Of a stretch of 64,000 bases of DNA, positions 26,243 through 61,505 are shown one piece after another. This DNA comes from Candidatus Brocadiia bacterium (GTDB lineage: Bacteria; Planctomycetota; Brocadiia; CAIUPP01), in the NCBI GenBank assembly GCA_050015075.1, contig JBEKCB010000018.1, positions 1 to 64,000 on the forward strand, written 5' to 3'. The notes below the pieces were generated by a model, which was not told the origin of the DNA, searched no databases, and saw nothing but the letters and a program-made list of their open reading frames with translations. Positions within the stretch are counted from its first letter, which is position 1. Each line of letters opens with the position of its first letter. The translations under genes were made by a program, and so were the position numbers.

Positions 26243-26400
26243 AACCACCGAGACACCAAAGCACCAAGAACGCCAAATGATAATGCAACCACGGAACACA
26301 CGGAAGACACTGAAACTGTTTAGCAAAGCCTTTCGGTGTGCTCCGTGTATTCCGTGGTGGAAGCCGTTGTCTCTTTGTGCCTTGGTGTCTTGGCGGTAAA
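26243..26400. repeat. Nested palindrome: outer 8-mer (CACCAAGR)x3 arms, inner 9-mer (CACGGAANA)x3 arms
   Basis: Directly visible; near-identical inverted copy at 49920-50070. Confidence 0.9.
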
Positions 26401-26408
26401 TGCGGCGC

Positions 26409-27101
26409 TTAGCTTTTCTGCCCGTAATACGCGTCCGGCCCGTGCTTGCGGAGGAAGTGTTTCGCGAGGAGGAACTCCGGGATGGGGCCCGCCGCGCCGT
26501 TGAGCTGCAACGTGCCCAGCGCGGTCTGCGCGACCAGCTCCAGCGCGACGCTGTTCGTCAGCGATTCGGCGGCGGTCCTGCCCCACGTGAACGGGCCATG
26601 ATGCGCGACGAGGACGGCGGGCATCTCGTTCGGGTTGATCTTCTTGAACCGCTCGACGATCGCGCGGCCGGTGTTCTCCTCGTACTTGCCGGCGACCTCT
26701 TTGCGGGTCAGGGCGCGCGTGACGGGAACCTCGCCGTTGAAATGGTCCGCGTGCGTCGTCCCCAGGCACGGAATGCCGCGGCCGGCCTGCGCGAACATTG
26801 TCGCGCAGGGGCTGTGCGTGTGCGTCACGCCGCCGATTCCCGCAAAGGCGCGGTAGAGCGCCAGGTGCGTCGGCGCGTCCGTCGAGGGCTGGAGCCTGCC
26901 CTCCGCGCGCGCTCCGTCCAGGTCCACGAGCACGATGTCGTGCCGCTTCAAAGCGGCATAGCCGACGCCGCTGGGCTTGATCGCCATCATCCCTTTCGCG
27001 CGGTCGAAGCCGCTGACGTTGCCGAACGTCAGCGTCACCAGCCGGCAGCGCTCCAGTTCCCGGTTCGCCCGGCACACTTGTTCTTTCAAGTCCTCAAGCA
27101 T
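26409..27101 (-). CDS. araD: L-ribulose-5-phosphate 4-epimerase
   Basis: TFGNVS, IKPSGV, THTHS, GTTHADHF and HFLRKHGPDAYYGQ. Confidence 0.95.
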   Translation of the reverse strand: MLEDLKEQVCRANRELERCRLVTLTFGNVSGFDRAKGMMAIKPSGVGYAALKRHDIVLVDLDGARAEGRLQPSTDAPTHLALYRAFAGIGGVTHTHSPCATMFAQAGRGIPCLGTTHADHFNGEVPVTRALTRKEVAGKYEENTGRAIVERFKKINPNEMPAVLVAHHGPFTWGRTAAESLTNSVALELVAQTALGTLQLNGAAGPIPEFLLAKHFLRKHGPDAYYGQKS

Positions 27102-27152
27102 GAGTTCCCTTCGATCCCGTTTTATCCTGTAATCCTGTCAAATCCGTTATCA

Positions 27153-28847
27153 TTATCCGCGCTGACGTTCGCGGATGCGGATGAGGTCCTTCATCACGTG
27201 GTCGAGCTTGCCCGACCACTCGCGCGTGCCGAAGGCGTCGTGCAGCGTGCGGTAGAGCGGGTAGAGTTCGGCGTAGACCGCCTGCGCCTTCGGGTTCGGG
27301 CGGTAGAACTTGTCCTTCACGCCGCAGACGGCGCGCTGCGCCTCGGCCGCGTCCGCGAACCCGCCGGCCTCTTTGCCGGCGGCGACCGCGCCGAAGATCG
27401 CCGCGCCGAGCGCGCAGGTCTGGTCGCTGCGCGAGACCTTCATCGGGCGGCCGGTGACGTCGGCGTAGATCTGCATCAGCAGCGGGTTCTTCGCCGCCAG
27501 GCCGCCGCAGTTGACGAACTCCTTCACCGGCACGCCGTACTCCTCGATGCGCTTGGCGATCGTCAGCGCGCCGAACGCGGTCGCCTCGATCAGCGCGCGG
27601 TAAATCTCGTGCGCCTCGGTGTGCAGCGTCTGCCCGAGCAGCAGTCCGCTCAGGCGCACGTCCACCAGGATCGTGCGGTTGCCGTTGTTCCAGTCGAGCG
27701 CCAGCAGGCCGTGCTCGCCGGGCTTCTGCTTCGCGGCGAGCGCGCCAAGCGTCTTGAATTTCTCGTCCGTCGTCCGGCCGAAGCGCTCCGGCACGAGATG
27801 GGCGATGAACCAGAGGAAAATGTCGCCGACGGCGGACTGCCCGGCCTCGATGCCGTAGAACCCGGGCAGGATCGAGCCGTCCACGATCCCGCAGACGCCG
27901 GGGATGTCGGCGAGCTTCTTCGCGTTGGGCATGACCATCATGTCGCAGGTGCTCGTGCCGAGGATTTTCACGAGCGTCCCTTCGCGGACGCCGGCGCCTA
28001 CCGCGCCCATGTGCGCGTCGAACGCGCCGGCGGCGATCGCGATGCCCGGCTTCAGCCCGAGCTTCTTCGCCCATTCCGCCGAGAGTCGCCCCGCCGCGTG
28101 GTCAGCCGGCACCGCCTTCTCGTAGAGCCGCCGGCGCAGCGCGGCCAGAGCCGGGTCGAGCCCGCGCAGGAACTCCTCGTCCGGCAGGCCGCCCCATTCC
28201 GGGCAGTACATCGCCTTGTGGCCGGCGGCGCAGACGCCGCGGACGATTTGCTCCGGCCGCGTGTCGCCGGCGAGCAGCGCGGGCATCCAGTCGCAGTGCT
28301 CGACGAAGCTGTGCGCGGCGGCGAAGACCTTCGGCGCGGCGCGCTTGCAGCGCAGGGCCTTGCTCCAGAACCACTCCGAGGAATAAGTCCCGCCGCATTT
28401 GGCCAGGTACTGCGGCCGGATTTTCCGCGCGCGCGCGGTGATCTCCGCCGCCTCGGCGTGGCCGGTGTGGTCCTTCCAGAGCCAGGCCATCGCATCGAGG
28501 TTCCCCTTGAACTGCGGCAGCATGGCCAGCGGCGTGCCGTCGCGGTCCACCGGCATCGGCGTGCTGCCGGTGGTGTCAATGCCGATGCCGACGATCTGCG
28601 CCGGGTCGAACCGGCGGTCCGCCTTCTTCGCGCGGCGGATCGTCCGCGGCACAACGCCCAGCGCGGCGACGTAGTCCTGCGGATTCTGCCGCGCCAGGTT
28701 CGGCTCGCGCGGATCGAGCAGAATCCCCGCCGCGCCGGACGGAAAATCGAAGACGCAGCTTTCCACCTCGCGCCCGTCGGCCAGGTCCACGATCAGGCAG
28801 CGGCAGGAGTTCGTCCCGTAGTCGAGTCCCAACGCATATCTCTTCAT
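27153..28847 (-). CDS. araB: Ribulokinase
   Basis: LGLDYGTNS, DTTGST, LWKDHT, YSSEWFWSK and LDWNNGNRT. Confidence 0.95.
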   Translation of the reverse strand: MKRYALGLDYGTNSCRCLIVDLADGREVESCVFDFPSGAAGILLDPREPNLARQNPQDYVAALGVVPRTIRRAKKADRRFDPAQIVGIGIDTTGSTPMPVDRDGTPLAMLPQFKGNLDAMAWLWKDHTGHAEAAEITARARKIRPQYLAKCGGTYSSEWFWSKALRCKRAAPKVFAAAHSFVEHCDWMPALLAGDTRPEQIVRGVCAAGHKAMYCPEWGGLPDEEFLRGLDPALAALRRRLYEKAVPADHAAGRLSAEWAKKLGLKPGIAIAAGAFDAHMGAVGAGVREGTLVKILGTSTCDMMVMPNAKKLADIPGVCGIVDGSILPGFYGIEAGQSAVGDIFLWFIAHLVPERFGRTTDEKFKTLGALAAKQKPGEHGLLALDWNNGNRTILVDVRLSGLLLGQTLHTEAHEIYRALIEATAFGALTIAKRIEEYGVPVKEFVNCGGLAAKNPLLMQIYADVTGRPMKVSRSDQTCALGAAIFGAVAAGKEAGGFADAAEAQRAVCGVKDKFYRPNPKAQAVYAELYPLYRTLHDAFGTREWSGKLDHVMKDLIRIRERQRG

Positions 28848-28953
28848 CGCCGGCTCTCCCGGAACATTCTGACATCCAGCAGGCGTCCACCGTTGCACTA
28901 TTATCTCCGAGGCGGCGGTTTTTGCAAGAGCTTTGTGCAAACTGACAGAGGCT

Positions 28954-29124
28954 CGCCCGTTTGACGTCGCGACCCTGCTCGCGATATGCTGCGCGAGCCG
29001 TCGGAACGGATCGTCCTCGTCTTCGAACTCGTCCTCGTCCTCGGCTGTTCGTAACGGCCGTTCGAGGACGGGGACGAGGACGACGACGAGGACGCTTGGC
29101 TAATGGGCGACTCGCCACGAAGAG
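28954..29124 (+). repeat. Direct repeat copy 1: promoter + (CTCGTC)n/(GACGAG)n palindrome
   Basis: Aligns with 29728-29896; contains TTGACG-18 nt-TATGCT. Confidence 0.9.
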
Positions 29125-29193
29125 GCAAGTCGCACGCAACGGGTGCGATACAGTCCGCGCGCAAGGACGGCGGCTCCCGGTGGAGGAAAATCC

Positions 29194-29595
29194 ATGGCTG
29201 ATGCGCTTCCGAAAGAGGAAAGTCCCGGAATCTCTGAGGAGGTTAAGCGTGTTGCAGGCGGTCTCGCACTCTGGATGCGGGTAGTGGCCATCATGGGCTT
29301 TCTCGGCGTACTCTACCAGTGGGGTAGGATGTTGCCGCAAGCAAAATTCGCCTCGGCATCCGAATTCGTTTTCGCCGTCATCAGCGGACTAATAGAATGC
29401 TTCGCGCTATTCTATTTATGGCAAAGCGCCGGCTCCTTTCGCCGGCTAGCAAGAGTTGAGCAGAGCGACGGCCGGCCACTGGAGCATGCGCTCCGGCAAC
29501 TGAAGACGTACTTCTGCTTCGCGACGATTCTGACCGTGATCGAATTTGCGGCATTCTTTTGGCTTACCCGCTGGGTCGGCGCGGGAACGCGTTGA
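29194..29595 (+). CDS. Small three-TM hypothetical membrane protein (DUF5362-like)
   Basis: GGAGG RBS; 'WMRVVAIMGF' and 'LE.AL..LK.YF' pattern; family call tentative. Confidence 0.7.
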   Translation: MADALPKEESPGISEEVKRVAGGLALWMRVVAIMGFLGVLYQWGRMLPQAKFASASEFVFAVISGLIECFALFYLWQSAGSFRRLARVEQSDGRPLEHALRQLKTYFCFATILTVIEFAAFFWLTRWVGAGTR

Positions 29596-29727
29596 GTGAC
29601 GCCGCAATGCAACAGATACTTGATGCAGTCAAGAAAGCCAACACGGAAAGCCTTCACCAATGAGTTTCGCGGCCCGAGCAGGTGGGGCCTGGCCGCTCTA
29701 ACACCTGACTCCAAACCGATATAGGTC

Positions 29728-29896
29728 CGCCCGTTTGACGTCGCGACCCTGCGCGCGATATGCTGCGCCATTTGTTGGAATGGATCGTCCTCGTCCTCGA
29801 ACTCGTCCTCGGCCGTTTTCTAACGGCCGTTCGAGGACGAGGACGAGGACGGGGACGAGGACGATTGGCTTATGGGGAGACTCACGAGTGAAGAGA
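29728..29896 (+). repeat. Direct repeat copy 2 (fba promoter/5'UTR)
   Basis: Aligns with copy 1 at 28954-29124. Confidence 0.9.
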
Positions 29897-30796
29897 CCCT
29901 CTGTCGCCACAATGATGCAGGCGGCGTGCGAGAAGCAGATCCTGATCCCGGCGTTCAACATCGCCTACCTGCCGATGACGCGGCCGGTGGCGCGGACGCT
30001 CGAACGGCTCGGGACGTTCGGGCTGGCCGAGGTGGCGATGCCGGACGTGACGCGCTTCGGCGCGAAGAGTTTCGACGCGGTCGCCGCCGAGTACCGCAAG
30101 GAGGCGAACCCGGAGTTCGTGGCGCTCCACCTCGACCACGTGCCGGTGATTGACGAGGAACACAAGCGCCTGGATTGGGAAGCGCTGATCCGCAAGGGAC
30201 TGGATCTCCGGTTCGAGTCGGTGATGCTCGACGGCTCGCGCCTGCCGCTGGAGGAGAACATCGCGGCGGTGCGTCAGGTCGTAGAGATGTGCCACCCCAG
30301 GGTCGCCGTCGAGGCGGAGCTCGGCGCGGTGCTCGGACACGAGGCCGGGCCGATCCCGCCGTACGAGGAACTCTTCCGGACGAAGAGAGGATTCACCGAC
30401 CCGGACGAGGCGCGGCGGTTCGTGAAGGAGACCGGCGTGGACTGGCTCAGCGTGGCCGTCGGCAGCATCCACGGCGCGATCACCGGCGCGGGCAAGGACC
30501 AGGCGAAAGTCGCCGCACGGCTGCACAGCGAGCATCTGCGCACGCTCCGCAAGGCCACCGGCGTGCCGCTGGTGCTCCACGGCGGATCGGGCGTGCAGAA
30601 GGAATCCGTCCTTGAGGGCATCCGCAACGGCATCGCTAAGATCAATATCGGAACCGAGATACGACAGGCTTACGAGAAGCCGCTGGCCGCCGGCAAGGGC
30701 GAGAAGGCCGCGCAGGAGGCGGTCGCCGCGAAGGTCGAGGAACTCATCGTCGAGGTTTACGGCATCGCCGGCTCGCGGGCGAAGCTGTGCGGATGA
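29888..30796 (+). CDS. fba: Class II fructose/tagatose-bisphosphate aldolase
   Basis: PAFN, LHLDH, VEAELG, VGSIHG, VLHGGSG and KINIGT. Confidence 0.88.
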   Translation: MKRPSVATMMQAACEKQILIPAFNIAYLPMTRPVARTLERLGTFGLAEVAMPDVTRFGAKSFDAVAAEYRKEANPEFVALHLDHVPVIDEEHKRLDWEALIRKGLDLRFESVMLDGSRLPLEENIAAVRQVVEMCHPRVAVEAELGAVLGHEAGPIPPYEELFRTKRGFTDPDEARRFVKETGVDWLSVAVGSIHGAITGAGKDQAKVAARLHSEHLRTLRKATGVPLVLHGGSGVQKESVLEGIRNGIAKINIGTEIRQAYEKPLAAGKGEKAAQEAVAAKVEELIVEVYGIAGSRAKLCG

Positions 30797-30800
30797 ACTC

Positions 30801-30886
30801 CCAATCGTCCTCGTCCTCGCTCTCGTCCTCGTCCTCGAACGGTAGGTCATAACGGCCGAGGCGGAGGACGACGACGAGGACGATCG
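30801..30886. repeat. (CTCGTC)n palindrome, inverted relative to 29783-29869
   Basis: ccaatcgtcctcgtcctcg...gaggacgacgacgaggacgatc. Confidence 0.85.
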
Positions 30887-30906
30887 AGGCGCAATCGGCG
30901 TTATAG

Positions 30907-32505
30907 ATGCCTGAAAAACACGACATTCTTCCCGGCATGCTCAAGACCGGCGCGGGGACATTGGCCAGCCGGATTCTGGGGCTTCTGCGCGAGGTGTTCA
31001 CCACGCGCTTTTTCGGCGCCGGCCCCGCGTTCGATATGTTCGTCATCGCCTTCCGCGTGCCGAACCTCTTTCGTGCGCTCTTCGGCGAGGGCGCGTTGAA
31101 CGCGTCGTTCATCCCGGTCTTCACGCGCGAGGGGCTCGATCCGGCGGGCGATGCGCGGCGGCTGCTCAACGCCGTCATGACGGCGCTCGCCGCGCTGCTG
31201 ATGGGCATCACCTGCCTGGGCTGGCTGATCTGCGGCATCGCCCTGCTCTCCGGCCGCCTGCCGCCCAACGGCAAGCTGTTCTGCCTGCTGCTGATGATCC
31301 TGCTGCCGTACCTTCCGCTCATCTGCCTCACCGCGCTGCAGGGCGCCGCGCTGAACGTGAAAGGGCATTTCCTCCGGCCCGCGTTCGCGCCGACGATCAT
31401 GAACATCTGCTGGATCGGCGCGATTGTCCTGCTGCGGTTTTGGCACGTCAAGGACTTGAGCCTGGGCGCCACCGCGCTCGCGGTCGGAGTGCTGATTTCG
31501 GGCGGGCTCCAGTTCGCCTATCAGGCGATGATGCTGCGCCGCTGCAAGCTCCATTTTCGGCTGGTCTGGGACCTGGCGCATCCGGGCCTGCGGCAGATCG
31601 TTCACCTGACGCTCCCGGTGGCGCTGGGAGTGGGCGTCATCCAGGTCAACACGTTCGTGGATTCGCTCTTTGCGCAGTTCTGCGTGCGGGATGCGGGCGC
31701 CAACAGCGCGCTGTGGTATGGCAACAACCTGATGCAATTTCCGCTGGGCGTGCTGGGTACCGCGCTGGCGACGGCGGTGCTTCCGGCGCTGGCGCACCAC
31801 GAGGCCGTGGGCGACCGCAAGTCGTTCGTGGACGCCATCGGCCTGTCGCTCCGGACGGCGTTCTTCGTCTCGCTTCCCTGCGTCGCCGCCACGGTCGCGC
31901 TCAGCGCGCCGATCGTGCGGGTGCTCTATGAGGGCGGGCGGTTTACGCCTGAATCCACGGCGCGGACGGCGGCGGTCTTCCTCTGTTTCACCGCGGGCCT
32001 GTGGGCGTTCTGCGCCATCCAGGTGCTGGCGCGCGCGTTCTACGCTCAGCAGGACGTGCGCGCGCCCAGGCGGATTGCGGTCATGATGGTCGGCGCAAAC
32101 TTCGTCCTGAACGCGATTTTGGTCTGGCCGATGCGCGAGGCGGGACTGGCGCTGTCGAGCAGCATCTGCGGGGTCGGGAACATGGTGCTGCTGTGGATAC
32201 ACCTGAGAAAGAAGATCGGTCCGATCGGCGGGCGCGCTGTGGCGGCCAGCGCGGTGAAGTCCGCCGTCGCCGCCGCGATCGCAGGGCTCGCCGGGTACGG
32301 CGCATTTTACGGAACTCTGCGAGCGGCCGGCGGGCCGGCGATGACCTCGCCGCGGGCCTGGCCTCAACTCCTGGCGCTCTCGTGCGGCCTGGCCGCCGTG
32401 TGCGCGGTCTTCCTGCTGGCGGCGTGGGCGCTGCGCGCGACGGAACTGAGCGAGTTCCTCCAGTCCCTCCGCCGGAAGAAAGACCGGGCGCCTTCGGACG
32501 GCTGA
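30907..32505 (+). CDS. murJ: Lipid II flippase
   Basis: SRILGLLRE, AFRVPNLFRALFGEGAL, QFPLGV and RAFYA. Confidence 0.95.
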   Translation: MPEKHDILPGMLKTGAGTLASRILGLLREVFTTRFFGAGPAFDMFVIAFRVPNLFRALFGEGALNASFIPVFTREGLDPAGDARRLLNAVMTALAALLMGITCLGWLICGIALLSGRLPPNGKLFCLLLMILLPYLPLICLTALQGAALNVKGHFLRPAFAPTIMNICWIGAIVLLRFWHVKDLSLGATALAVGVLISGGLQFAYQAMMLRRCKLHFRLVWDLAHPGLRQIVHLTLPVALGVGVIQVNTFVDSLFAQFCVRDAGANSALWYGNNLMQFPLGVLGTALATAVLPALAHHEAVGDRKSFVDAIGLSLRTAFFVSLPCVAATVALSAPIVRVLYEGGRFTPESTARTAAVFLCFTAGLWAFCAIQVLARAFYAQQDVRAPRRIAVMMVGANFVLNAILVWPMREAGLALSSSICGVGNMVLLWIHLRKKIGPIGGRAVAASAVKSAVAAAIAGLAGYGAFYGTLRAAGGPAMTSPRAWPQLLALSCGLAAVCAVFLLAAWALRATELSEFLQSLRRKKDRAPSDG

Positions 32506-32545
32506 GCGATTGCGGGTCGGAAAATCTGATGGAGAGGAGATGACC

Positions 32546-33556
32546 ATGAAGCGAACCCTGCTCACGACCGCGGCCGCCGCGTGGGTCGCCGTCTCCCTTG
32601 CCGCATGCCGGACCGCGCCGAGCCACCCGCCTTCGTTCAAGGAGTTGCTCGGGTTGACGGCGGTGAAAGGCTCGCAGCTTCCGGCCGCGGCGAAAATGAA
32701 GATGTTGCAGGAGCTTCACCAGGCCATACAGTTCACGCCGGCGGAACTGCGGAAAATTCAGGACAGCGGCGATGTCCGCCTGATGGCCGGAGCGCTCGCG
32801 GTCACCGACGGCGAGAACCTGCTCGCGCCGGCGCTTCTGAGCCTGGCCCTTTCGAAAGCGCCGGACGATCCCGCGCTGCTGGCCGTTCTTGCGTACCGGG
32901 CGACTTTTTTTCAGCAGCAGCGGGAAATGCCCGAATCGGAGTTTCTGGATGCCCTGGACCGATGGCGGAAACTGGAGCCGGAAAACTCAGTCCCTTATTA
33001 CCTCGAGGCGGCGTGGCGGGTGAATGAAAAGAAGTTCGGGGACGCCGCCCGGGCGCTGGCCGAGGCGAGCCGCCATCCGAAATTCGACTCGTACTGCGCG
33101 GCGCTGCGACTGGACGTCGTCGCCGCGGGCGATTTCGCCGACTATCCGAAATTCACCGCGCGCTACCTGGCCCTCACTTTTCCCGGCGAGGCGCCTTTCG
33201 CCAATGCCGCCTGGCGTTGCCTGGATTGGCAAGGCGCGAACGAGCAGGTGGCGCGCGACTGCATCGTCCTCGGCAAGCGCCTGGAGGCCGAAAAAACGCT
33301 CCTGGTCGGCGAGTTGATGGGCCTGACGCTGCAGTCGGCGGCCATGACGAGATTCGCTCAAACCGGCAGCGCGGCGGAGTTGAAACGCGTCCTGGAACGC
33401 GCGAAACGGATCAGGGAGATCGGCGACCGGATGAACGCCCTGTCAGAGCGCATACCCGAGAAGCGCTTCGTCGCGTTCCTGGACGAAGGGCTTGCCGGAT
33501 CCGAGGCCGCGGCGGACGAGAAGCTCATTGCGGAATATGGAGATTCCTCGAAGTGA
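32546..33556 (+). CDS. Hypothetical lipoprotein, helical/TPR-like
   Basis: LAAC lipobox; 'EPENSVPYYLEA'. Confidence 0.7.
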   Translation: MKRTLLTTAAAAWVAVSLAACRTAPSHPPSFKELLGLTAVKGSQLPAAAKMKMLQELHQAIQFTPAELRKIQDSGDVRLMAGALAVTDGENLLAPALLSLALSKAPDDPALLAVLAYRATFFQQQREMPESEFLDALDRWRKLEPENSVPYYLEAAWRVNEKKFGDAARALAEASRHPKFDSYCAALRLDVVAAGDFADYPKFTARYLALTFPGEAPFANAAWRCLDWQGANEQVARDCIVLGKRLEAEKTLLVGELMGLTLQSAAMTRFAQTGSAAELKRVLERAKRIREIGDRMNALSERIPEKRFVAFLDEGLAGSEAAADEKLIAEYGDSSK

Positions 33557-33703
33557 CCGGGACTCGCCGGGCCCGGCCGCGCGGCGCGCCGACACGAGGA
33601 GCGTCGGCCGGTTCCTGGGCGCGGACTGGTTCCGGGAACCGGCGCTCGGTCGCGATGGGGTGTGCCGTGGACGAAGCGGGATTGTGTCGTTCGAGGGAGA
33701 GCG

Positions 33704-33904: not shown

Positions 33905-33980
33905 GCTTGCGCCTTCTCCTTCAATAGGGCTGTCCGGGTTAGAGCCATCCGCGGTGCAACTGCAGGCATCAAAGGGGCGA

Positions 33981-34008
33981 ATTATACCATCGGAAACTGC
34001 CTTGTCAA
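33981..34008 (-). promoter_or_regulatory. Consensus sigma70 promoter
   Basis: TTGACA-16 nt-TATAAT with an extended TG. Confidence 0.75.
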
Positions 34009-37839: not shown

Positions 37840-39501
<1,662 letters not shown>

Positions 39502-39624
39502 TGAATGATGAGCGGCGGGGAAAGCGGCGCTGGTCCGGCGCGGCACAGACGGCGTCAAATATGGTATGATGCGATCGGGAGGAGTTTCAGAGAACCTCCT
39601 CGCGGCGAGGCGAAAGGATCGAGA

Positions 39625-48960: not shown

Positions 48961-49897
48961 GGAGAAGGTCTCCGGGTTTGACAACGTGGCCGCGCAGGTA
49001 CGCGGCGGCGTCCATCGGCTTGCGGCCTTCGGGCTGGACGCGCAATACGGTGACGCATCCACGCCCGGTCCCGACGATGAGCCGATCCTCGGCGCGGAGG
49101 ACCTGTCCGGGCGTCGCCGCCGCGCCCGCATCGTCAGCCGGACGCGCGGCCAGCAGGATCAGCCGCTCGCGCCGCTCGCCGCAGAGGTAGAACGTGAACG
49201 CGCCCGGCCAGGGCGTCATGCCGCGGATGAAATTGCAGACGCCGCGCGCATCGAGGCGCCAAGGAACCAGGCCGTCGTTTTTCCGCAGGCTCGGCGCCTC
49301 GGTCGCCCGCGCGGCATCCTGCGGCTGCTCGACGGCCGCGCCGGACTCGACCGCGTCGAGCAGCGGCGCGATCATCTCGGCCGCCAGCACCGCGAGACGC
49401 ACGGAAAGCTCGCCGGCGGTCTCCTCGTCGCCGATGCGCAGCGCGCGCTGGACGAGAATTGCGCCGGCGTCCAGCTCGGGCGCCATGCGCTGGATGGTGA
49501 CGCCGGTCTCCGATTCGCCGCACAGGATCGCGCGCTCGATCGGCGCGGCGCCGCGGTACTTCGGCAGGAGCGAGGCATGCGCGTTGAAGCAGCCGAGCCG
49601 CGGCAGCGCCAGCACGCGCCGCCCCAGGCGCTTGCCGTACGCGGTGACGACGATCGCGTCCGGCGCGGCGGCGCGCAGCGACTGCACCGCCTCGGGCCGG
49701 TTGATGCTCTCCGGCTGGATCACCGGCACGCCCCGCGATTGGGCGACCTGCTTGACCGGCGGTGCCCACGGCACGCGCCCGCGCCCGCGCGGCTTGTCCG
49801 GCTGCGTGACGACCAGGCAGACCGCGTGGCGGCTGCGCAGCAGCGCCTCCAGCGTCGGGACGGCGAAATCGGGGGTTCCGGCGAAACAGATCTTCAC
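48950..49897 (-). CDS. fmt: Methionyl-tRNA formyltransferase
   Basis: GTPDFA, TQPD, HASLLPKYRGAAP and LDAG. Confidence 0.95.
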   Translation of the reverse strand: MKICFAGTPDFAVPTLEALLRSRHAVCLVVTQPDKPRGRGRVPWAPPVKQVAQSRGVPVIQPESINRPEAVQSLRAAAPDAIVVTAYGKRLGRRVLALPRLGCFNAHASLLPKYRGAAPIERAILCGESETGVTIQRMAPELDAGAILVQRALRIGDEETAGELSVRLAVLAAEMIAPLLDAVESGAAVEQPQDAARATEAPSLRKNDGLVPWRLDARGVCNFIRGMTPWPGAFTFYLCGERRERLILLAARPADDAGAAATPGQVLRAEDRLIVGTGRGCVTVLRVQPEGRKPMDAAAYLRGHVVKPGDLLHGA

Positions 49898-49919: not shown

Positions 49920-50070
49920 ATTTACCACTAAGTTACCAAGGCTCAAAGAGACAACGGCTTCCACCACGGAATACACGGAGCACACCGAATGACTTTCCTG
50001 AACAGCTTCAGTGTCTTCCGTGTGTTCCGTGGTTGCAATATCAGTTGGCGTTTTTGACGCCTTGGTGGTT
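49920..50070. repeat. Inverted copy of the nested palindrome at 26243-26400
   Basis: Shares the spacer aaagagacaacggcttccaccacggaatacacggagcacaccgaa; one 8-mer unit is lost. Confidence 0.9.
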
Positions 50071-50075
50071 CAACA

Positions 50076-50624
50076 CTAACGTTGGTCGTCAGACGAGGGC
50101 GGGCCGGACGCCTGACGTTCAGCCATCTCCTGGAGCTTCGGCTCGATGATGAGCTTGGCGGTCGGGGTGAGGCGGTCCACGAAGAGCGTGCCGTCGAGGT
50201 GGTCCAACTCGTGCTGCCACGCGCGCGCGACCAGGCCCTGCGCCTCCATCTCGACCGTCTCGCCGGACGGGAGCATCGCGCGGACGGTGACGATCTCCGC
50301 GCGGCGCACTTTGGCGAAGACGCCGGGCACGCTCAGGCAGCCTTCCTCCTCGAAGAGCTTTCCGCGCTTGGACAGGATCACCGGATTGATGAACGTCTCG
50401 ACCTTTCCCGGCTCCGAGGTCGTGTTGATGAGCATGAACCGGAACGGCCAGCCGACCTGCGTAGCGGCCAGCCCGACGCCCTTCTCCTGGTGCATCAGTT
50501 CCGCCATGCGTTCGGACATCTCGCGGAGGAAACTGTTGATTTCCTTGATGCGATCCGCGTGCGCGCGCAGCGCCGGCGCCGGATAACGGAGGACGTGCAG
50601 CGTCTTCAGATCGGGATATTGCAC
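50076..50624 (-). CDS. def: Peptide deformylase
   Basis: GVGLAATQVG, EGCLS and QHELDHLDG. Confidence 0.95.
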   Translation of the reverse strand: MQYPDLKTLHVLRYPAPALRAHADRIKEINSFLREMSERMAELMHQEKGVGLAATQVGWPFRFMLINTTSEPGKVETFINPVILSKRGKLFEEEGCLSVPGVFAKVRRAEIVTVRAMLPSGETVEMEAQGLVARAWQHELDHLDGTLFVDRLTPTAKLIIEPKLQEMAERQASGPPSSDDQR

Positions 50625-54174: not shown

Positions 54175-54320
54175 GCACCGACTCCTTGCAAGGCAAAGCT
54201 TCTGCGCTCGCGCTGATGCGCGTTTTCAACCCCAGGCAGTGACGAAAGATTCTACCAGAGTGCTTCGGCGGAAAACAACCGGGTCCGGCGGGAGGCGCCG
54301 GAGCGCGTATCGCAACTCGT

Positions 54321-55133: not shown

Positions 55134-55185
55134 CGGGCAGTCCCTGATGATGGCGGACGGGCACGGGCCGAGCGGTCTTCGCCGG

Positions 55186-56154
55186 CTACGACGTCAGGTA
55201 CAACTCGCGCCGCAGCTCCGCGTAAGCGCCGCCGGATTCTTCCTTCACCTCGGCGCCGAAAGCGCGCGAGATCCCGTCGCGCTCCTCGGCGGTAAGTTCG
55301 AAATCGGACGCCTTGAGGCTGTCTTCGAGTTGATCGAGCCGGCTGGCGCCCACGATCGGGCAGGTGACCGCGGGGCAGGAGGAAACCCACGCGATGGCCA
55401 CATGCACGGGCGAAACGCCGCGCCGCGCGGCCAGTTCCAGGAGGAAGCGCATGCCGCTGGTGTAGCGATCGAGCCAGTCGGTGATGCGCTCGTCCGTCTC
55501 CGCGCGCGAGTCCTTGGGAATCGGCCCGCCCGGCTGATATTTCCCGGCCAGCAGCCCGATCAGCAGCGTGCGGTAAATGGTGATGGCGCTCCCTTCCGCG
55601 AGCGCCTGCGGCAGCACTTCGACCTCGACGCCGCGCTCGATCGGGTTGTACGGCACCTGGTTGCAGACGAGTTCCGTCCAGCCGTGGAGCCTGGAGATCG
55701 CGTTCGAGTAGCAGAACAGCCAGGCCGGGTAGTTGCAGCAGCCGACGAAGCGCGCCTTGCCGGACTTCACGACGCGGTCCAGCGCCTCCATCACCTCCAT
55801 CGGCTTCATGCCTTTCTTCGGCCAGTGGATCATGTAGAGATCCACGAAGTCCGTCTGGAGGCGGCGCAGGCTCTCCTCGATGCTCTGGGTGATCGCCTCG
55901 GCGTCAATGCCGCGGTGCACCTTCGTCGCCAGGAAGACTTTCTTGCGCGCGGGCTTGAGGATGCGGCCCAGGAGTTCCTCGGCGGCGCCTTCGCCGTACA
56001 TCGCGGCGGTGTCCACGAAATTCACGCCCGCGTCGAGCGCCGCGGAGATGATGCGGCTCGCCTCGGCCTCGTCGGTGCGCCGGCCGAACATCATCGTGCC
56101 GAGGCACAGGTGCGAGACTTTGACGCCGGTCTTCCCGAAGGTGACTTGCTTCAT
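55186..56154 (-). CDS. Aldo/keto reductase
   Basis: LCLGTMMFG, DTA..Y, ATK and SLRRLQTD..DLY..HWP. Confidence 0.92.
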   Translation of the reverse strand: MKQVTFGKTGVKVSHLCLGTMMFGRRTDEAEASRIISAALDAGVNFVDTAAMYGEGAAEELLGRILKPARKKVFLATKVHRGIDAEAITQSIEESLRRLQTDFVDLYMIHWPKKGMKPMEVMEALDRVVKSGKARFVGCCNYPAWLFCYSNAISRLHGWTELVCNQVPYNPIERGVEVEVLPQALAEGSAITIYRTLLIGLLAGKYQPGGPIPKDSRAETDERITDWLDRYTSGMRFLLELAARRGVSPVHVAIAWVSSCPAVTCPIVGASRLDQLEDSLKASDFELTAEERDGISRAFGAEVKEESGGAYAELRRELYLTS

Positions 56155-56361
56155 CAGGTTCGTTCCGATCCGTTGAGGTTGCGTTCAAGTTGCGTTCAGA
56201 AACGATGACGGCGATGAGAACACCCGTCCCCGCACGACTGAGCGGTGCCCGTATTGACCCTGCTACGGCGAGGCAGTATATCACATGTGCGACTTTGAGA
56301 CAAGTTTTTTCGACGCGGCGGGTTCAAGGCCGTCCTGATTGGCCGAACGGCGGGGTTCTCC

Positions 56362-56389
56362 TTGACAGGCCGCGCCCTGCGACTATAAT
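56362..56389 (+). promoter_or_regulatory. sigma70 promoter of the his cluster
   Basis: TTGACA-16 nt-TATAAT. Confidence 0.7.
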
Positions 56390-56423
56390 GCACGAACGGG
56401 TTGGAATTCAGAAGGAGCATGCG

Positions 56424-56882
56424 ATGGCCGAACTGCTGCAAAGCCAGGTGGCGCAGATCCTGTCGGACAAGTACATCGTCATCGCCGTCGGCGCGCTCGC
56501 CGGCGCGAAGGTTGGGATGACCTTCGTCGTCCTCATGCAGGGCGAAGAGGTGAAGGATCCCGCCACCGGCGCGGTGCTCGGCCGGTGGGAACTGCCGAAG
56601 GGCTACCTGCGCGCGACGCACGTGCAGGAGCGGATGACCACGTGCGAGGGCATTCCGGCGCCGGGGCAGGACTCGCGCTCGACCGACGAGACCGGCGTGC
56701 TCTCGGCCACCATGATCTCCGATTCCCTGCGGCCGGAAACCTGGGGCGGCGCCGGCGACCGGCTCAACGTGAACCGCGCGCAGGTCGCCGGTATCCCACG
56801 CGTCGGCCCCATCTCCGTCGGCGACGTCGTCCGCGAATGCAAACTGGATTCGCCGGCCGACCCGAAGGCCCCTCGGCCATGA
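56424..56882 (+). CDS. Hypothetical protein (FlgT C-terminal-like beta domain)
   Basis: AAGGAG RBS; 'G...G.K.G..F.V...GEE..DP.TG..LG'; ATGA overlap with hisD. Confidence 0.65.
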   Translation: MAELLQSQVAQILSDKYIVIAVGALAGAKVGMTFVVLMQGEEVKDPATGAVLGRWELPKGYLRATHVQERMTTCEGIPAPGQDSRSTDETGVLSATMISDSLRPETWGGAGDRLNVNRAQVAGIPRVGPISVGDVVRECKLDSPADPKAPRP

Positions 56883-58234
56883 AGATTCTCCGCGCCGGAG
56901 AAACCGATCTCTCGGCCGCGCTCCGGGAACTCTCGTCGAAGCTGGGACTCGGCGGCGGCATGGTCTCCGAGAGCAGCCGCCGGAAGACGCTGGAAATCTT
57001 CGGCGAGGCGCTCACGCCGCTCGAGGTCGTGCGGAGGATCCTGCGCGACGTGCGCGCGCGCGGGGACGAGGCGATCTCCGAATACGCGCGCAAGCTCGAC
57101 GGCGCGACGCTGCCGCCGAAAAAGTTCCTTGTCACGCGCAGGGAGATGGACGCCGCTTGGCGCTCCGTGCCGGCGCGTTTCCGGAAGAGCCTCGCGCGGG
57201 CGAGCGCCAACATCCGCCGCTTCCAGGAGCGCATCAAGCTCAAGGCGCCCGCGCCGCTGTGGAACCGCGAAGGAGGCCGGGTCGCGGTGGAGTACCGGCC
57301 GCTGGCGCGCGTCGGCCTCTGCGTGCCCGGCGGCCGCGCCGCGTATCCGTCCTCGGTGCTGATGACGGCCATCCCGGCGCAGGTCGCCGGCGTGGACGAG
57401 ATCGCGATGGTCACGCCGTGCCGGCCCGACGGGACCGTCTGGCCGCAGACGCTCGCCGCGGCGCGCGTGGCGGAGCTGACCGAAGTCTATCGCATCAGCG
57501 GCGCGCCGGCGGTCGCCGCGCTCGCCTACGGGACGAAGACCATCCGCCGCGTGGACAAGATCGTCGGCCCCGGAAGCATTTTCGTCACGCTGGCCAAGCG
57601 CGAGGTGTACGGCGAAGTCGCCCTCGACATGCTTGCCGGGCCGAGCGAGGTGCTGATCATCGCCGACGCGAAGGCCGATCCGCGTTTCGCGGCCGCCGAT
57701 CTGCTCAGCCAGGCCGAGCACGACCCGGCCGCGGCCGTGCTGCTGACGCCCGATGAACGCGTGGCGCGCGAGACGCTCGCGGAGATCGAGCGGCAACTGC
57801 CGAAGCTCTCGCGCGAGAAGGCCGCGCGCGACGGCCTCGAGCGATATGGTTTGATCGCCGTCACGCGCGATCTGGACCAGGCCGTCGTCCTGGCGAACCA
57901 GTTCGCGCCGGAGCACCTTGAACTCGCGGTCGAGAAGCCGGACGCTCTGCTCGGAAGAATCCGGTCCGCCGGCGCGGTCTTCATGGGCGCCTATACGCCC
58001 GAACCGGTCGGCGATTACCTGGCCGGCCCGTCGCACGTGCTGCCGACCGGCGGCACCGCGCGGTTCTTCAGCGGACTGAGCGTGAACGATTTCCTCCGCC
58101 GCATCAGCGTGCTGCGCTACACGAAAGCGGCGCTCAGGAAGAGCGTCGCCGACATCGACACGCTCGCCCGAGCCGAGGGCCTCGACGCGCACGCGCGGGC
58201 GGCCACGATACGGTTTGAAGACGAGGGACAATAG
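56879..58234 (+). CDS. hisD: Histidinol dehydrogenase
   Basis: VPGG.AAYPSS, AGPSE, QAEH, APEHL and GDY.AGPSHVLPT. Confidence 0.95.
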   Translation: MKILRAGETDLSAALRELSSKLGLGGGMVSESSRRKTLEIFGEALTPLEVVRRILRDVRARGDEAISEYARKLDGATLPPKKFLVTRREMDAAWRSVPARFRKSLARASANIRRFQERIKLKAPAPLWNREGGRVAVEYRPLARVGLCVPGGRAAYPSSVLMTAIPAQVAGVDEIAMVTPCRPDGTVWPQTLAAARVAELTEVYRISGAPAVAALAYGTKTIRRVDKIVGPGSIFVTLAKREVYGEVALDMLAGPSEVLIIADAKADPRFAAADLLSQAEHDPAAAVLLTPDERVARETLAEIERQLPKLSREKAARDGLERYGLIAVTRDLDQAVVLANQFAPEHLELAVEKPDALLGRIRSAGAVFMGAYTPEPVGDYLAGPSHVLPTGGTARFFSGLSVNDFLRRISVLRYTKAALRKSVADIDTLARAEGLDAHARAATIRFEDEGQ

Positions 58235-58286
58235 ACTACCGGTTTCGTTCCATCGTCCATCGTCTGCAGTTCTTCTAAGGTGCAAC

Positions 58287-59363
58287 ATGAGTTACTTCCG
58301 CCGCAACATCCAGCGCATGACCGGCTACGTGCCGGGCGAGCAACCGCAGGAGAAAGGGTTTATCAAGCTCAACACGAACGAGTCGCCGTATCCGCCATCG
58401 CGGAAGGTGCTCCGCGCGGTCCGGGCGGCGGTGAACGCGGACGTGCGGCTCTACCCCGACCCGATGGCCAACGCGCTCCGGCGCAGGGCGGCGGAACTCT
58501 TCGGGACTCGGCCGGAATGCGTGCTGGCGGGGAACGGGTCGGATGAGCTGCTCACGATCGTTGTGCGCGCGTTCGCCGGGCCGAAGCGCGTCGTGGCGTA
58601 TCCGACGCCGACCTATTCGCTCTATCCGACGCTCGCCGCCATCGAGGACGCGCGCACGCGCCCGGTCCCGTACCCGCGCGATTTCTCGCTGCCCGCCGGG
58701 CTTTTCCGCAAGGGCGCGGCGGTGACGATCGTGGCGAACCCGAACAGCCCGACCGGCACCGCGGCGTTGCCGAAAGAACTCGCGCGGCTGGCGCGCGCGG
58801 TCAGCGGCGTGCTGGTGATTGACGAGGCGTACGTGGATTTCGCGGACCTCGACTGCATGGAACTCGCGAGACGCCACAGCAACGTGATCGTGCTGCGGAC
58901 GTTCTCGAAGTCGTTTTCGCTCTGCGGCCTCCGGCTCGGCCTGGCCGTCGCCGACGAGAAGCTCATCGAGGGCATGGCCAAGGTCAAGGACAGCTACAAC
59001 GTCAACCGGCTGGCGATCGTGGCGGGCGCGGCGGCGCTCGACGACATCGGCTCGATGCGGGCGAACGCGGAGAAAATCCGCCGGACGCGCGCGCGGCTGA
59101 CGGCGGCGCTGGAATCGCGCGGCTGGTTCGTTTATCCTTCGCAGAGCAACTTCATCTTCGCGCGTGTGCCGCCGCCGCTCTCGGCGCGCCGGATTTACCA
59201 GGAGCTGAAGCGCCGGAAAATCCTCGTCCGCTATTTCGACGCGCCCGGTCTCGACGACGGGCTGCGCATCACCATCGGCAGCGACCGCGAGATCAGCGCA
59301 TTGATCCGCGGCCTGCGAAGCATCGAGGAACAAAGAATTTTAACCACAGATGGACACAGATGA
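58287..59363 (+). CDS. hisC: Histidinol-phosphate aminotransferase
   Basis: KLNTNE, GNGSDE, NPNSPTG, DEAY and RTFSK. Confidence 0.95.
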   Translation: MSYFRRNIQRMTGYVPGEQPQEKGFIKLNTNESPYPPSRKVLRAVRAAVNADVRLYPDPMANALRRRAAELFGTRPECVLAGNGSDELLTIVVRAFAGPKRVVAYPTPTYSLYPTLAAIEDARTRPVPYPRDFSLPAGLFRKGAAVTIVANPNSPTGTAALPKELARLARAVSGVLVIDEAYVDFADLDCMELARRHSNVIVLRTFSKSFSLCGLRLGLAVADEKLIEGMAKVKDSYNVNRLAIVAGAAALDDIGSMRANAEKIRRTRARLTAALESRGWFVYPSQSNFIFARVPPPLSARRIYQELKRRKILVRYFDAPGLDDGLRITIGSDREISALIRGLRSIEEQRILTTDGHR

Positions 59364-59423
59364 ACACAGATACGCAATAACTTTCTTGTCCACATCTGTG
59401 CTCATCTGTGTCCATCTGTGGTT
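59343..59423. repeat. Palindrome with 10-mer (CACAGATGRA)x3 arms
   Basis: aaccacagatggacacagatgaacacagat...atctgtgctcatctgtgtccatctgtggtt; contains the hisC stop. Confidence 0.9.
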
Positions 59424-59446
59424 TCAAAATGAATTAAACTGAGGAG

Positions 59447-60043
59447 ATGAACATGGCATCCCGCAAGTCCGAGGTCCGCCGCAAGACGAAGGAGACGGAC
59501 GTGACGCTCTCGCTGGTGCTCGACGGCGGCGGCGCGGGCGCGATTTCCACCGGAGTCGGGTTCCTCGATCACATGCTCGACCTGCTGGCGCGGCACGGGC
59601 TGCTGGACCTGACCGTGAAGGCGACGGGCGATACGCACGTGGACGCGCACCACACCGTCGAGGACGTCGGCATCTGCTTCGGCCAGGCGCTGAAGGAGGC
59701 GCTCGGCGACCGCAGGGGCATCCGCCGGTTCGGCGATTGCGCCGTGCCGATGGAGGACTCGCTGGCGCAGGTGGCGCTGGACCTCGGCGGCCGCGGCGCG
59801 CTCGTCTTCAACGTCGCGTTCCCGACTCCGAAGACCGGCGATTTCGACGTGGTCCTCGTCGAGGAATTCTTCCGCGCCGTCGCGGGCAACTCCGGCATGA
59901 ACCTGCACGTCAACGTCCCGTACGGCAAGAACAGCCACCACGTCGCCGAAGCGGTCTTCAAGTCCTTCGCCCGCGCGCTGGACCAGGCGATGCAGCTCGA
60001 TCCGCGGATCAAGGGCGTGCCGTCAACGAAAGGTATGATTTAG
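59447..60043 (+). CDS. hisB: Imidazoleglycerol-phosphate dehydratase
   Basis: FLDHML, HHTVED, N.HH..EA.FK and PSTKG. Confidence 0.95.
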   Translation: MNMASRKSEVRRKTKETDVTLSLVLDGGGAGAISTGVGFLDHMLDLLARHGLLDLTVKATGDTHVDAHHTVEDVGICFGQALKEALGDRRGIRRFGDCAVPMEDSLAQVALDLGGRGALVFNVAFPTPKTGDFDVVLVEEFFRAVAGNSGMNLHVNVPYGKNSHHVAEAVFKSFARALDQAMQLDPRIKGVPSTKGMI

Positions 60044-60054
60044 GGAATAACCAA

Positions 60055-60132
60055 ACTCGTAATCGTAATCGCCGTTTTACCTACAGCCGGACGAACGGAC
60101 GAGTACGATTAGGAGCAAGATTACGATTACGA
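60055..60132. repeat. Hexamer palindrome (TCGTAA)n/(TTACGA)n
   Basis: ctcgtaatcgtaatcg...gagtacgattaggagcaagattacgattacga. Confidence 0.7.
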
Positions 60133-60184
60133 AAAGTAGGCGCTCCTGGTTTTCTCGGCTCTTAGGTTTTGTCGTTGGAACCCC

Positions 60185-61324
60185 ATGCCTCGCCCCACGA
60201 TCGTGGAAATTGATCTCTCCGCCATCCGCGACAACCTGCGCGCGATACGGGCGCTGGTTGGGCCGGCGGTGGAGATCATCGGCATGGTCAAGGCCGACGC
60301 GTACGGCCATGGCGCGGCGGCGGTCGGCCGGACGCTGGCGGCGGAGGACGTGAAGCGGTTCGGCGTGGCGCTGGTCGAGGAAGGCGCGGCGCTGCGCGCA
60401 GCGGGGATCCCCGGAGAAGTGCTCGTCCTCGGCGCGCTGCTGCCGGAGGACGCGCCGGAGATCGTCGAGAATGGGTTCGAGGCGGCGCTGAGCGACCTGG
60501 ATTTCGCCCGCCGGCTGGACGAAGTTTCCCGCCGGCGGCACGGTCCGCCGGTCGGCGTCCACGTGAAGCTCGATACCGGCATGGGCCGGTTTGGATTCCC
60601 GCTGAAGCGGGCGCTGGACGTCATCTGCGAACTGGCCGGCCTGCGCGGTCTGAGGCTGGTCGGCGCGATGACGCATTTTCCCTCGGCGGATGAAGCCGGG
60701 CCGCCGGGCCGCGGGAGCGACGGCGTGGAGTTCACGCGCGGGCAGATCGGCGCGTTCCTGAAAATCCGCGAGGCGGTCGCGGCGGCGGGAATCCGGCTGC
60801 CGCTCTGGCACGCGGCGAATTCGGCGGGCATCCTGCTGCATCCCGAGTCGCGCCTGGACGCGGTGCGGCCCGGGCTGGCGCTCTACGGCGGGTTCCCGGC
60901 GGCGCAGGTGCCGCCTCCGGCGAAGCTGCGCCAGGCGATGACGCTCAAGACACGGATCGTGCTCGTCCGCGAGTTCCCGGCCGGCGCGACGCTGGGCTAC
61001 GGGCGGACCTTCCGGACCGCACGCGCCTCGCGCATCGCGGCGCTGCCGATCGGCTATGCGGACGGATTCAGCCGCGCGCACTCGAACAAGGGGCAGGCGC
61101 TGGTCCGCGGGCGGCGCGCGCCGATCGTCGGGCGGGTGTCCATGGACACGGTGCTGGTGGACGTGACCGACGTGGCGGGCGCGCAAGCCGGCGACGAGGC
61201 GGTGCTCTACGGCCGGCAGGGCGCGGCGGAGATCTCCATCGTCGAAGCGGCCGAGACGCTCGGCACGATCCCCTACGAACTGATGACCTCGCTCACAGCC
61301 CGCGTGCCGAGGGTCTGGCGCTAA
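60185..61324 (+). CDS. alr: Alanine racemase
   Basis: VKADAYGHG, DTGMGRFG, VRPGLALYG, GYADG and GRVSMD. Confidence 0.95.
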   Translation: MPRPTIVEIDLSAIRDNLRAIRALVGPAVEIIGMVKADAYGHGAAAVGRTLAAEDVKRFGVALVEEGAALRAAGIPGEVLVLGALLPEDAPEIVENGFEAALSDLDFARRLDEVSRRRHGPPVGVHVKLDTGMGRFGFPLKRALDVICELAGLRGLRLVGAMTHFPSADEAGPPGRGSDGVEFTRGQIGAFLKIREAVAAAGIRLPLWHAANSAGILLHPESRLDAVRPGLALYGGFPAAQVPPPAKLRQAMTLKTRIVLVREFPAGATLGYGRTFRTARASRIAALPIGYADGFSRAHSNKGQALVRGRRAPIVGRVSMDTVLVDVTDVAGAQAGDEAVLYGRQGAAEISIVEAAETLGTIPYELMTSLTARVPRVWR

Positions 61325-61333
61325 ACGGTTCTA

Positions 61334-61505
61334 TTAACCACCAAGACACCAAGGCACCAAGGACGACGGCAGTTTTCGGAACCACAGATGAACACAGATG
61401 AGCACAGATACGAATTTCGTTTTGGCCCCATCTGTGTTTATCTGTGTTCATCTGTGGTTCCTAAATCCGTCATCGTCCTTGGTGCCTTGGCGTCTTGGTG
61501 GTTAA
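61334..61505. repeat. Nested palindrome: outer 8-mer arms, inner 10-mer arms
   Basis: ttaaccaccaagacaccaaggcaccaag...aaccacagatgaacacagat...atctgtggtt...cttggtgccttggcgtcttggtggttaa. Confidence 0.92.

Follow-up and report, generated by a model that had tools for sequence, protein, structure and literature searches.

Partly nested palindromic elements with periodic arms in a Brocadiia contig and their probable kinship with mobile, gene-bearing cassettes

What are the palindromes with periodic arms that lie between the protein genes of a planctomycete contig, and how has one hairpin come to stand inside another? The question arises from contig JBEKCB010000018.1 (GenBank assembly GCA_050015075.1, Candidatus Brocadiia bacterium), of which a stretch of 64,000 nucleotides (nt), positions 1 to 64,000, was analysed and is called the window below. 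Four elements in it, E1 to E4 (Table 1), have arms made of short tandem words. We read them, with a probability of roughly 0.6, as gene-less and partly nested members of widespread mobile palindromic cassettes that resemble the intervening sequences (IVSs) of bacterial ribosomal RNA (rRNA); the enzyme and the mechanism of movement are what we infer. The argument draws on the source genome (G000; 4.64 Mb in 66 contigs, 64.7% GC, 93.6% complete), in which the window is contig C18, and on a sister species of the same genus (G001). As judged from the sequences of these two genomes, the cassettes are mobile at the DNA level: they have been gained, cleanly lost and, mostly, swapped at the same intergenic spot. 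Full-length members carry a gene in the loop, either for a GxxExxY nuclease of the PD-(D/E)XK type or for a four-helix-bundle protein of the S23p type.

Elements of the window and the families of their arms

E1 consists of a shell whose arms (~26243-26270 and 26373-26400) hold three CACCAAGR units each, a spacer, and an inner hairpin with three CACGGAANA units per arm (26287-26315 and 26331-26359) around a loop of ~18 nt. The inner 9-mer arms of E2 occupy 49965-49989 and 50007-50031. The two 30-nt arms of E3 (59342-59371 and 59394-59423) are 97% complementary, and E4 has its shell at 61334-61363 and 61476-61505 and its 10-mer arms at 61378-61409 and 61430-61461, with arms totalling 76 nt and 89% complementarity in the repeat search. 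The original prediction, made from the letters alone, had described these four elements with three-unit arms and with 9- and 10-mer hairpins set inside 8-mer shells, and our reading of the sequence bears that description out. Folded with DNA parameters and compared with 100 dinucleotide shuffles, E1 gives an energy of -40.2 (z -6.6), E2 of -33.3 (z -6.3), E3 of -30.7 (z -10.3) and E4 of -75.2 (z -17.5). All four lie outside long open reading frames (ORFs), which rules out coding repeats as their identity. Their loops, 15-22 nt long, hold no ORF, and no gene of the S23p/four-helix-bundle type is found in the window copies.

Hairpins of this build recur throughout the source genome. A reverse-complement partner within 300 nt was found for 154 of the 3758 periodic tracts of 19-60 nt, against 8 and 4 in controls that used the plain reverse and the complement, respectively; restricting the count to tracts with a GC content below 0.6 leaves 118 of 962, with none in either control. 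A chance origin of the hairpins is rejected by these controls. The arms fall into about 20 families (named by eye) with periods of 6-10, and they are AT-richer than the genome (GC 0.43-0.58 vs 0.65). When arms were collected with a detector that required at least three units, exactly three were counted in 46/46 arms of the 8-mer family, 108/110 of the 9-mer family, 72/73 of the 10-mer family and 28/28 of the CGCGAAA family; the GGGAGATT family has 3-8 units per arm, mostly 4.

E1 and E2 align at 89% identity over 148-152 nt on opposite strands, and a genome-wide BLAST search recovered the 8/9-mer composite in 35 copies (the query included) at 86-100% identity. Since all 35 keep one internal order and the same two spacers, the composite has spread as a unit, as had been predicted from E1 and E2, and most nested copies are this one composite rather than the outcome of separate nesting events. 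Shell and guest are thereby shown to be able to spread together. Tandem arrays of 2, 2, 4 and 6 units were found at four of the composite loci. A count of nested and solo copies in G000 shows that nesting is restricted to two shell families, CACCAAG and CGCGAAA, and two guest families, the 9-mer and the 10-mer. The 10-mer element sits in CACCAAG shells at ~3 loci and in CGCGAAA shells at ~10, and stands alone at ~7; the abundant GGGAGATT and GACGAT families (18 and 11 solo copies, respectively) are not nested in this genome. There is also a third tier of nesting: at four loci, in both shell types, a GC-rich palindrome of ~34 nt is found at one fixed point of the 10-mer left arm (Table 1). The extra flanks of E1 (27 nt and 12 nt) occur once in the genome by BLAST, and no donor flank was found.

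Gain, loss and exchange between two sister species

G001 is the sole other genome of the genus compared, and its flanks are 91-94% identical to those of G000. Besides the four sites of the window, the comparison took in seven more regions, for a total of 141 kb and 114 intergenic sites. The site of E1 is empty in G001, where 11 nt correspond to 196 nt and the two convergent stop codons abut. The sites of E2 and E4 are occupied in G001 by a GGGAGATT-family and a GATGAGT-family hairpin, respectively, and E3 is common to both genomes at the same site, with the loop in inverted orientation. Elsewhere, a 151-nt CACGACG-type element and a 152-nt TCGTCC-type element are present in G000 and absent from G001, conversely G001 has three elements that G000 lacks, one of them of the CACGAAG type and 134 nt long, and members of the TCGTCC family outside the window vary between the two genomes in the same manner. 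A strict definition of hairpin loci gave 28 in the compared regions; a single G001 alignment runs across 17 of these, but not across the other 11. In support of the mobile system that had been proposed, the elements are non-coding and differ between these two congeneric species.

In several cases the outer arms are shared and only what they enclose differs. At C1:48535 the same shell holds a 9-mer hairpin in G000 and a GGGAGATT hairpin in G001; at C15:81401 the same 8-mer shell holds a GGGAGATT hairpin in G000 and a GxxExxY gene in G001; and at C1:58894 and C13:69335 four and six tandem 9-mer units, respectively, in G000 face a bare loop in the G001 shell. In a closely alignable pair, the inner stem of the shell is retained and just a 15-nt loop is replaced. 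The alignments thus show the loops of CACCAAG-type shells to be exchangeable slots and real points of entry.

At 12 sites, different families occupy the same intergenic spot in the two genomes. Besides the sites of E2 and E4, these comprise three further composites of G000 that face GGGAGATT or GATGAGT elements in G001, one site with a GGGAGATT and a TCGTCC element, one with a CACGAAG and a TCGTAAT element, four more, and a four-helix-bundle cassette that faces another with different arms (G000 C11:11778-12244 vs G001 C65). The four-helix proteins of this last pair are far more diverged than the ~92%-identical DNA that flanks them. With 16 and 15 differing sites in the respective genomes, the expected overlap is 2.1 if all 114 sites are considered and 5.6 on the assumption that just 43 of them are permissive, against the 12 observed (hypergeometric P 1e-10 to 4e-5). 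It had been proposed that members of the system target one another's loops. Shell loops are indeed exchanged between the species, but the bulk of the nested copies is a single composite, and entry into a loop is less common than the wholesale exchange of a resident element for one of a different family at its spot. Such eviction at fixed spots is unusual for bacterial repeats.

Beyond the genus, def and fmt are adjacent or overlapping in the other genera read; in genome G003, the def-fmt spacer is ~100 nt and has no clear periodic hairpin. No periodic element was found at the hisC-hisB junction in six other genera read, in which the two genes abut, overlap or are parted by a spacer, and one other-genus genome has an unrelated palindrome there.

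Genes enclosed by the arms

The source genome has five TIGR04256 (GxxExxY) genes and three TIGR02436 (four-helix-bundle) genes, none of them on C18. Periodic inverted arms flank 5/5 of the GxxExxY genes and at least two of the three four-helix-bundle genes, so that the association of such repeats with GxxExxY genes, put forward in the original prediction together with the remark that none lies in the window, is borne out across the genome. The gene at C41:198-545 is a GxxExxY gene enclosed by 9-mer arms. In G001, six GxxExxY matches were found, including genes in 8-mer arms, in 10-mer arms (Table 1) and in arms of the ACAGGAT type, the family of the half-element at 27120-27148 of the window; the site of the ACAGGAT-armed gene holds a GGGAGATT hairpin in G000.

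One such cassette allows its history to be followed over a longer distance. A 10-mer-armed GxxExxY cassette lies between pdhA- and pdhB-like genes at orthologous positions in G001 and in G002, a genome of another genus; a single blastn alignment (75.9%) runs through it, and the GxxExxY proteins are 65% identical vs 82-83% for the flanking proteins. The cassette is absent from G000, which has a 39-nt spacer. Because the cassette is collinear in G001 and G002, the alignments point to its clean loss in the G000 lineage.

Going by sequence identity, the type of arm tracks the clade of the enclosed GxxExxY protein in three cases: identity is 47-68% for proteins in 10-mer arms and in CGCMGATGAA arms, a one-letter relative, 50% between the 8-mer-armed protein and the CGCCAAGA-armed one, and 67% between the 9-mer-armed protein and one in CGCGAAAGG arms. 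The remaining pairs are 30-53% identical. The relation between the presence of a gene and the number of copies with its arms is mixed. It fits for the 9-mer family, whose arm pattern has 61 matches in G000, where the 9-mer-armed gene is present, vs 5 in G001, where the best homologue is 41-42% identical, and it fails for the 8- and 10-mer families.

A structure model of the GxxExxY protein (pLDDT 96.1) has a predicted restriction-endonuclease-like fold, and the E, D and ExK residues are nearly invariant. Searching solved structures with the protein sequence returned no chain, and Foldseek with the model gave no match at E <=0.001; in a wider fold search, restriction-enzyme-like domains, of type II enzymes, and Cas4 scored best (Z up to 8.3) and the resolvase Hjc reached Z 7.0. 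The fold matches show a generic PD-(D/E)XK core. Tandem double-domain proteins of 250-269 amino acids also occur (P0001, P0008 and P0020), and in two of these three one domain lacks the catalytic lysine motif. The family comprises 17,738 clusters at 50% identity (E <=0.001; 1.84 billion representatives searched).

How could such cassettes move? The three words of an arm may serve as binding sites for protomers of the cognate protein, and the GxxExxY nuclease made from a gene-bearing copy could act in trans on gene-less copies of its own arm type, cutting either the arms or extruded palindromes. A copy would then enter DNA that is already palindromic, as a hairpin or a cruciform. If the outer arms survive the entry, nesting would result; if they are lost, one element would have replaced another. 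Where two copies have the same arms, their loops may be exchanged by repair of a break from another copy, the arms providing the homology. Stems that are transcribed within operons are, like those in rRNA, probable substrates of RNase III. If this account holds, a very large and uncharacterised protein family gains a testable role.

Several observations weigh against reading the elements as cassettes moved by these nucleases. The regions compared between the sister species were selected for their richness in elements in G000 and are not random, the classes of sites were scored by eye, and both genomes were assembled from metagenomes, with breaks at repeats; the genus offered one relative only. 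No target-site duplication was seen, whether at three pairs of filled and empty sites or on either side of the 35 copies of the composite (the palindrome extends 2-4 nt past the arms, and a short duplication could be hidden there), and neither an excision footprint nor an intermediate was seen at the compared sites. Tracking of the protein clade by the arm type is equally expected from simple co-inheritance. The 8-mer pattern has 36 matches in each genome, with the 8-mer-armed gene found only in G001, and the 10-mer pattern has 54 matches in G000 vs 36 in G001, though the 10-mer-armed gene is in G001. No 8-mer- or 10-mer-armed GxxExxY gene was found in G000 at its completeness of 93.6%, yet the newest insertions have 8-mer shells. 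There are four-helix-bundle cassettes without any nuclease gene, and 29/29 viral-contig stretches with the 10-mer arm have no GxxExxY or four-helix ORF within 700 nt. As for the raw data, the 24 sequencing runs listed for the organism are all of DNA (23 from peat and 1 from a wetland metagenome); contigs from four DNA runs broke at the elements, with joints derived from other copies in the community.

Some of these features are what one would expect if the palindromes were reshaped by the host itself, through SbcCD-type cleavage of hairpins, template switching and gene conversion between homologous arms, the GxxExxY and four-helix-bundle genes being cargo or selfish genes that settled in the loops. 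Host-driven turnover would readily exchange whole loops between unchanged arms with no trace of the old loop, would allow two unrelated gene types in the same position and active-looking families without a cognate gene in G000, and could yield the tandem arrays of inner units, which suggest recombination or slippage. Nevertheless, it leaves unexplained how elements arrive at sites without homologous arms, why there is a fixed number of three words per arm, why the exact word is kept across many phyla while the spacers drift, and why the arm type tracks the protein clade. We regard it as an unlikely explanation.

Known systems and distribution of the arms

The closest parallel to the proposed cassettes is in rRNA. 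According to PMC4990558, the IVS of the Coxiella 23S rRNA has a 28-bp terminal stem with three tandem GACAGAT heptamers before an S23p ORF, the number of heptamers varies, RNase III cuts at the first repeat, and rRNA IVSs are regarded as selfish, their origin being not known. The IVSs of Coxiella, Leptospira and Salmonella resemble the cassettes in their long terminal inverted-repeat stem and in the small loop ORF of their full-length forms; the Coxiella heptamer is one letter off the core of the 10-mer family and stands in the same architecture; and G000 has four-helix-bundle genes in periodic arms. The window copies differ in that they lie between protein genes (araD, def/fmt, hisC/hisB and alr/ugd) and not in helix 25 or 45 of the 23S rRNA gene, have no ORF and include nested copies, and their gene-bearing relatives mostly hold a GxxExxY nuclease. 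It is conceivable that rRNA IVSs and intergenic hairpins together form one pan-bacterial class of selfish elements, moved by GxxExxY proteins that would read three 7-nt words per arm, home to palindromes and nest in or evict what they find there. We put this forward tentatively, with the odds somewhat against it; were it true, the elements would transpose or home in a way that involves no known transposase family, and rRNA IVSs, unexplained in origin since 1990, would become a special case of a general element.

Other families of small repeats invite comparison as well. Repetitive extragenic palindromic (REP) sequences and the REPIN-RAYT system are likewise numerous short intergenic palindromes, with a single-copy gene flanked by the same repeats; their copies without a gene are presumed to depend on that gene in trans for movement (PMC3116915, PMC3333891, PMC3733652). 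Their unit, however, is a GC-rich palindrome of 20-40 bp with a GTAG or CGTC tag, not an arm of three tandem words, and the gene in question is of the Y1 HUH type, whereas periodic arms flank a PD-(D/E)XK nuclease or a four-helix-bundle gene. Insertion sequences that target REPs (IS1397, ISPpu9) also create nested structures by entering palindromic repeats, according to PMC1525189 and PMC12288879; here, in contrast, neither the host nor the guest has a transposase, both being small palindromes, and in many cases the guest takes the place of the entire loop or of the entire resident element. Miniature inverted-repeat transposable elements (MITEs) are similarly small and non-coding, have terminal inverted repeats, are polymorphic between relatives and are sometimes nested, but the arms described here consist of tandem words and no target-site duplication was seen next to them.

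Could the elements nevertheless be ordinary miniature transposons, MITE- or REPIN-like, moved by a conventional transposase (Y1 HUH, DDE or other) encoded elsewhere? Their inverted arms, high copy number, intergenic position and presence/absence polymorphism are as expected of such transposons, REP palindromes are a known target of insertion sequences (PMC1525189), and G000 has two Y1_Tnp (PF01797) genes. These genes (C26:67017 and C44:10217), however, are each flanked by non-periodic repeats of their own and not by periodic arms. About 20 arm families would demand equally many transposase specificities, and in none of the gene-bearing forms seen is the gene a transposase; it is always a GxxExxY or a four-helix-bundle gene. 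No transposase-encoding insertion sequence that could be the parent was found to share the arms; where these same arms enclose a gene, it is GxxExxY. Movement by a conventional transposase thus strikes us as improbable.

The proposed cassettes have more distant analogues. Foldback elements of Drosophila, which are eukaryotic, have inverted arms of short tandem repeats with an optional coding loop; the ends of Mu and Tn7 contain several transposase-binding sites of ~22 bp, and Tn7 uses TnsA, a restriction-enzyme-like nuclease of the PD-(D/E)XK type. None of the three, however, is a hairpin of 100-200 nt, and Mu and Tn7 are large and have DDE transposases. Cyanobacterial STRR heptamers and "very small mobile repeated elements" are tandem intergenic heptamers and nested small insertions, perhaps of the same kind. 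In a superfamily survey of 2012, the PDDEXK_3 family was entered as "Unknown". As far as our literature searches reached, palindromes with periodic arms have been described in rRNA alone, and neither their nesting or replacement nor a role for GxxExxY was found to be on record; a published passage on "GxxExxY" was unrelated to repeats.

The arms themselves are spread far beyond the lineage. The three-unit 10-mer pattern has an estimated 10,000 matching stretches in the species collection, from which 125 loci were sampled and examined. They come from Acidobacteriota, Bacteroidota, cyanobacteria, Proteobacteria, spirochaetes, Planctomycetota, Verrucomicrobiota, Chloroflexota, NC10 and others, and the arm occurs in records of Scytonema, Nostoc and Nodularia. 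A partner arm is present at 64/125 loci, with loops of 4-555 nt, and in all five loci with a loop longer than 200 nt an ORF for GxxExxY lies in the loop. Its orientation varies, and at two of the five it looks decayed. The arm was also found in 29 viral-contig stretches. Across 62 10-mer elements from many genomes, the words are kept in both arms and the five variable spacer positions agree between arms at 0.62, compared with 0.52 for shuffled partners; because this is barely above chance, words that are read by a protein would account for the pattern better than selection for pairing. Some hairpins are hybrids, with arms from different but related word families (L109, in a Nodularia record, and L226, L249 and L250, in viral contigs), and pair only partly for that reason.

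These patterns bear on the view that the hairpins are simply RNA structures under selection, kept as RNase III sites, stabilisers or terminators and turned over by repeated recruitment. RNA stems of very high stability are predicted (z -6 to -17), and IVS stems are RNase III substrates according to PMC4990558. When 135 hairpin loci were placed relative to 3644 ORFs from a crude custom ORF caller, 87 fell between genes on one strand, 21 between convergent ones and just 9 between divergent ones, the others being within a called ORF (17) or at a contig end (1). Selection on RNA, however, sits badly with sites that are empty in relatives with no visible harm, with the small amount of covariation between arms at variable positions, with identical arm words in many phyla and in viral contigs, and with genes that occupy the loops. 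Neither is a run of at least four T found after the right arms of E1 to E4, as judged by reading alone, and two of the elements are inside operons; on both grounds simple intrinsic terminators are rejected for the four. As a general explanation, conserved RNA structure seems to us very improbable.

Recognising the hairpins as mobile cassettes would allow many "odd" intergenic repeats in many phyla to be annotated. The elements could serve as fast strain markers, and a nuclease able to recognise short tandem words could make an interesting tool. Since elements stand within def-fmt and hisC-hisB, and one supplies the stop codon of hisC, their eviction would also matter for the evolution of operons.

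Neighbouring genes and further features of the window

Table 1. Positions of periodic-arm elements in the window, of nested palindromes elsewhere in the source genome and of armed genes in related genomes. Positions without a genome label refer to the window.
Feature	Position	Strand	Basis
E1, composite with an 8-mer shell round a 9-mer hairpin	26243-26400	.	sequence reading
E2, composite of the E1 type on the opposite strand, left shell arm decayed	49920-50070	.	sequence reading
E3, solo 10-mer hairpin between hisC and hisB	59342-59423	.	sequence reading and repeat search
E4, 8-mer shell around a 10-mer hairpin (CACAGATGRA, three units)	61334-61505	.	sequence reading and repeat search
Orphan half-arm with 2-3 ATCCTGT-like units, between araD and araB	27120-27148	-	sequence reading
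7-mer GACGATR-family hairpin between two same-strand genes	19587-19657	.	DNA fold -16.7, z -4.0
Period-6 TCGTCC hairpin, copy 1 of 3	29012-29094	.	DNA fold -37.2, z -7.9
Period-6 TCGTCC hairpin, copy 2 of 3	29784-29865	.	DNA fold -37.5, z -9.4
Period-6 TCGTCC hairpin, copy 3 of 3	30804-30884	.	DNA fold -27.6, z -4.1
Orphan CCGAWTG-family arm, five units	8069-8103	+	no partner arm seen in the sequence read
Orphan GATGAGT-family arm, three units	39493-39513	+	no partner arm seen in the sequence read
Palindrome of ~34 nt inside the 10-mer left arm	G000 C13:73422, C3:103961, C4:140520, C13:25357		
8-mer-armed GxxExxY gene	G001 C36:12333-12635		
10-mer-armed GxxExxY gene	G001 C84:29218-29547; also G002 C148		

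E1 lies between the convergent stop codons of an uncharacterised gene (24938-26227, plus strand) and araD (26409-27101, minus strand), and E4 between those of alr (61324) and ugd (61510). E2 is inside the def-fmt operon, with the def stop at 50076 and the fmt start at 49897. The left arm of E3 supplies the hisC stop codon at 59361-59363; beside this element, the final codons of hisC differ between G000 and G001, and on that account we take the insertion to have reshaped the C-terminus of the protein.

The stretch at 27120-27148 had been described as a half-element related to the others. Units of the ACAGGAT type are indeed present there, but neither a partner arm nor a fold was found (DNA energy -0.4, z 0.3), and for want of a fold we take it to be an orphan half-arm only. 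The GACGATR hairpin, the three TCGTCC hairpins and the orphan CCGAWTG and GATGAGT arms of Table 1 are additions to the original prediction. Upstream of the TCGTCC hairpins at 29012 and 29784 there is a repeated stretch of ~45 nt with promoter-like hexamers (28950-29000 and 29727-29775), on the strength of which these two hairpins may be in 5' untranslated regions. An Rfam scan of the window at gathering thresholds matched none of the elements, its sole match being the tRNA gene at 24646-24718 on the minus strand.

Insertions of other kinds also distinguish the two sister species. Two non-periodic, REP-like palindromic inserts of 115-138 nt (G000 C1:49801-49940 and C1:53548-53664) are absent from G001. 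A 607-nt insertion with two small ORFs (C1:51558-52166) stands beside a GACGAT-type hairpin, and 27 nt correspond to it in G001. Finally, a 393-nt in-frame coding insertion at C1:56330-56724, absent from G001, has ends that resemble those of a mini-intein.

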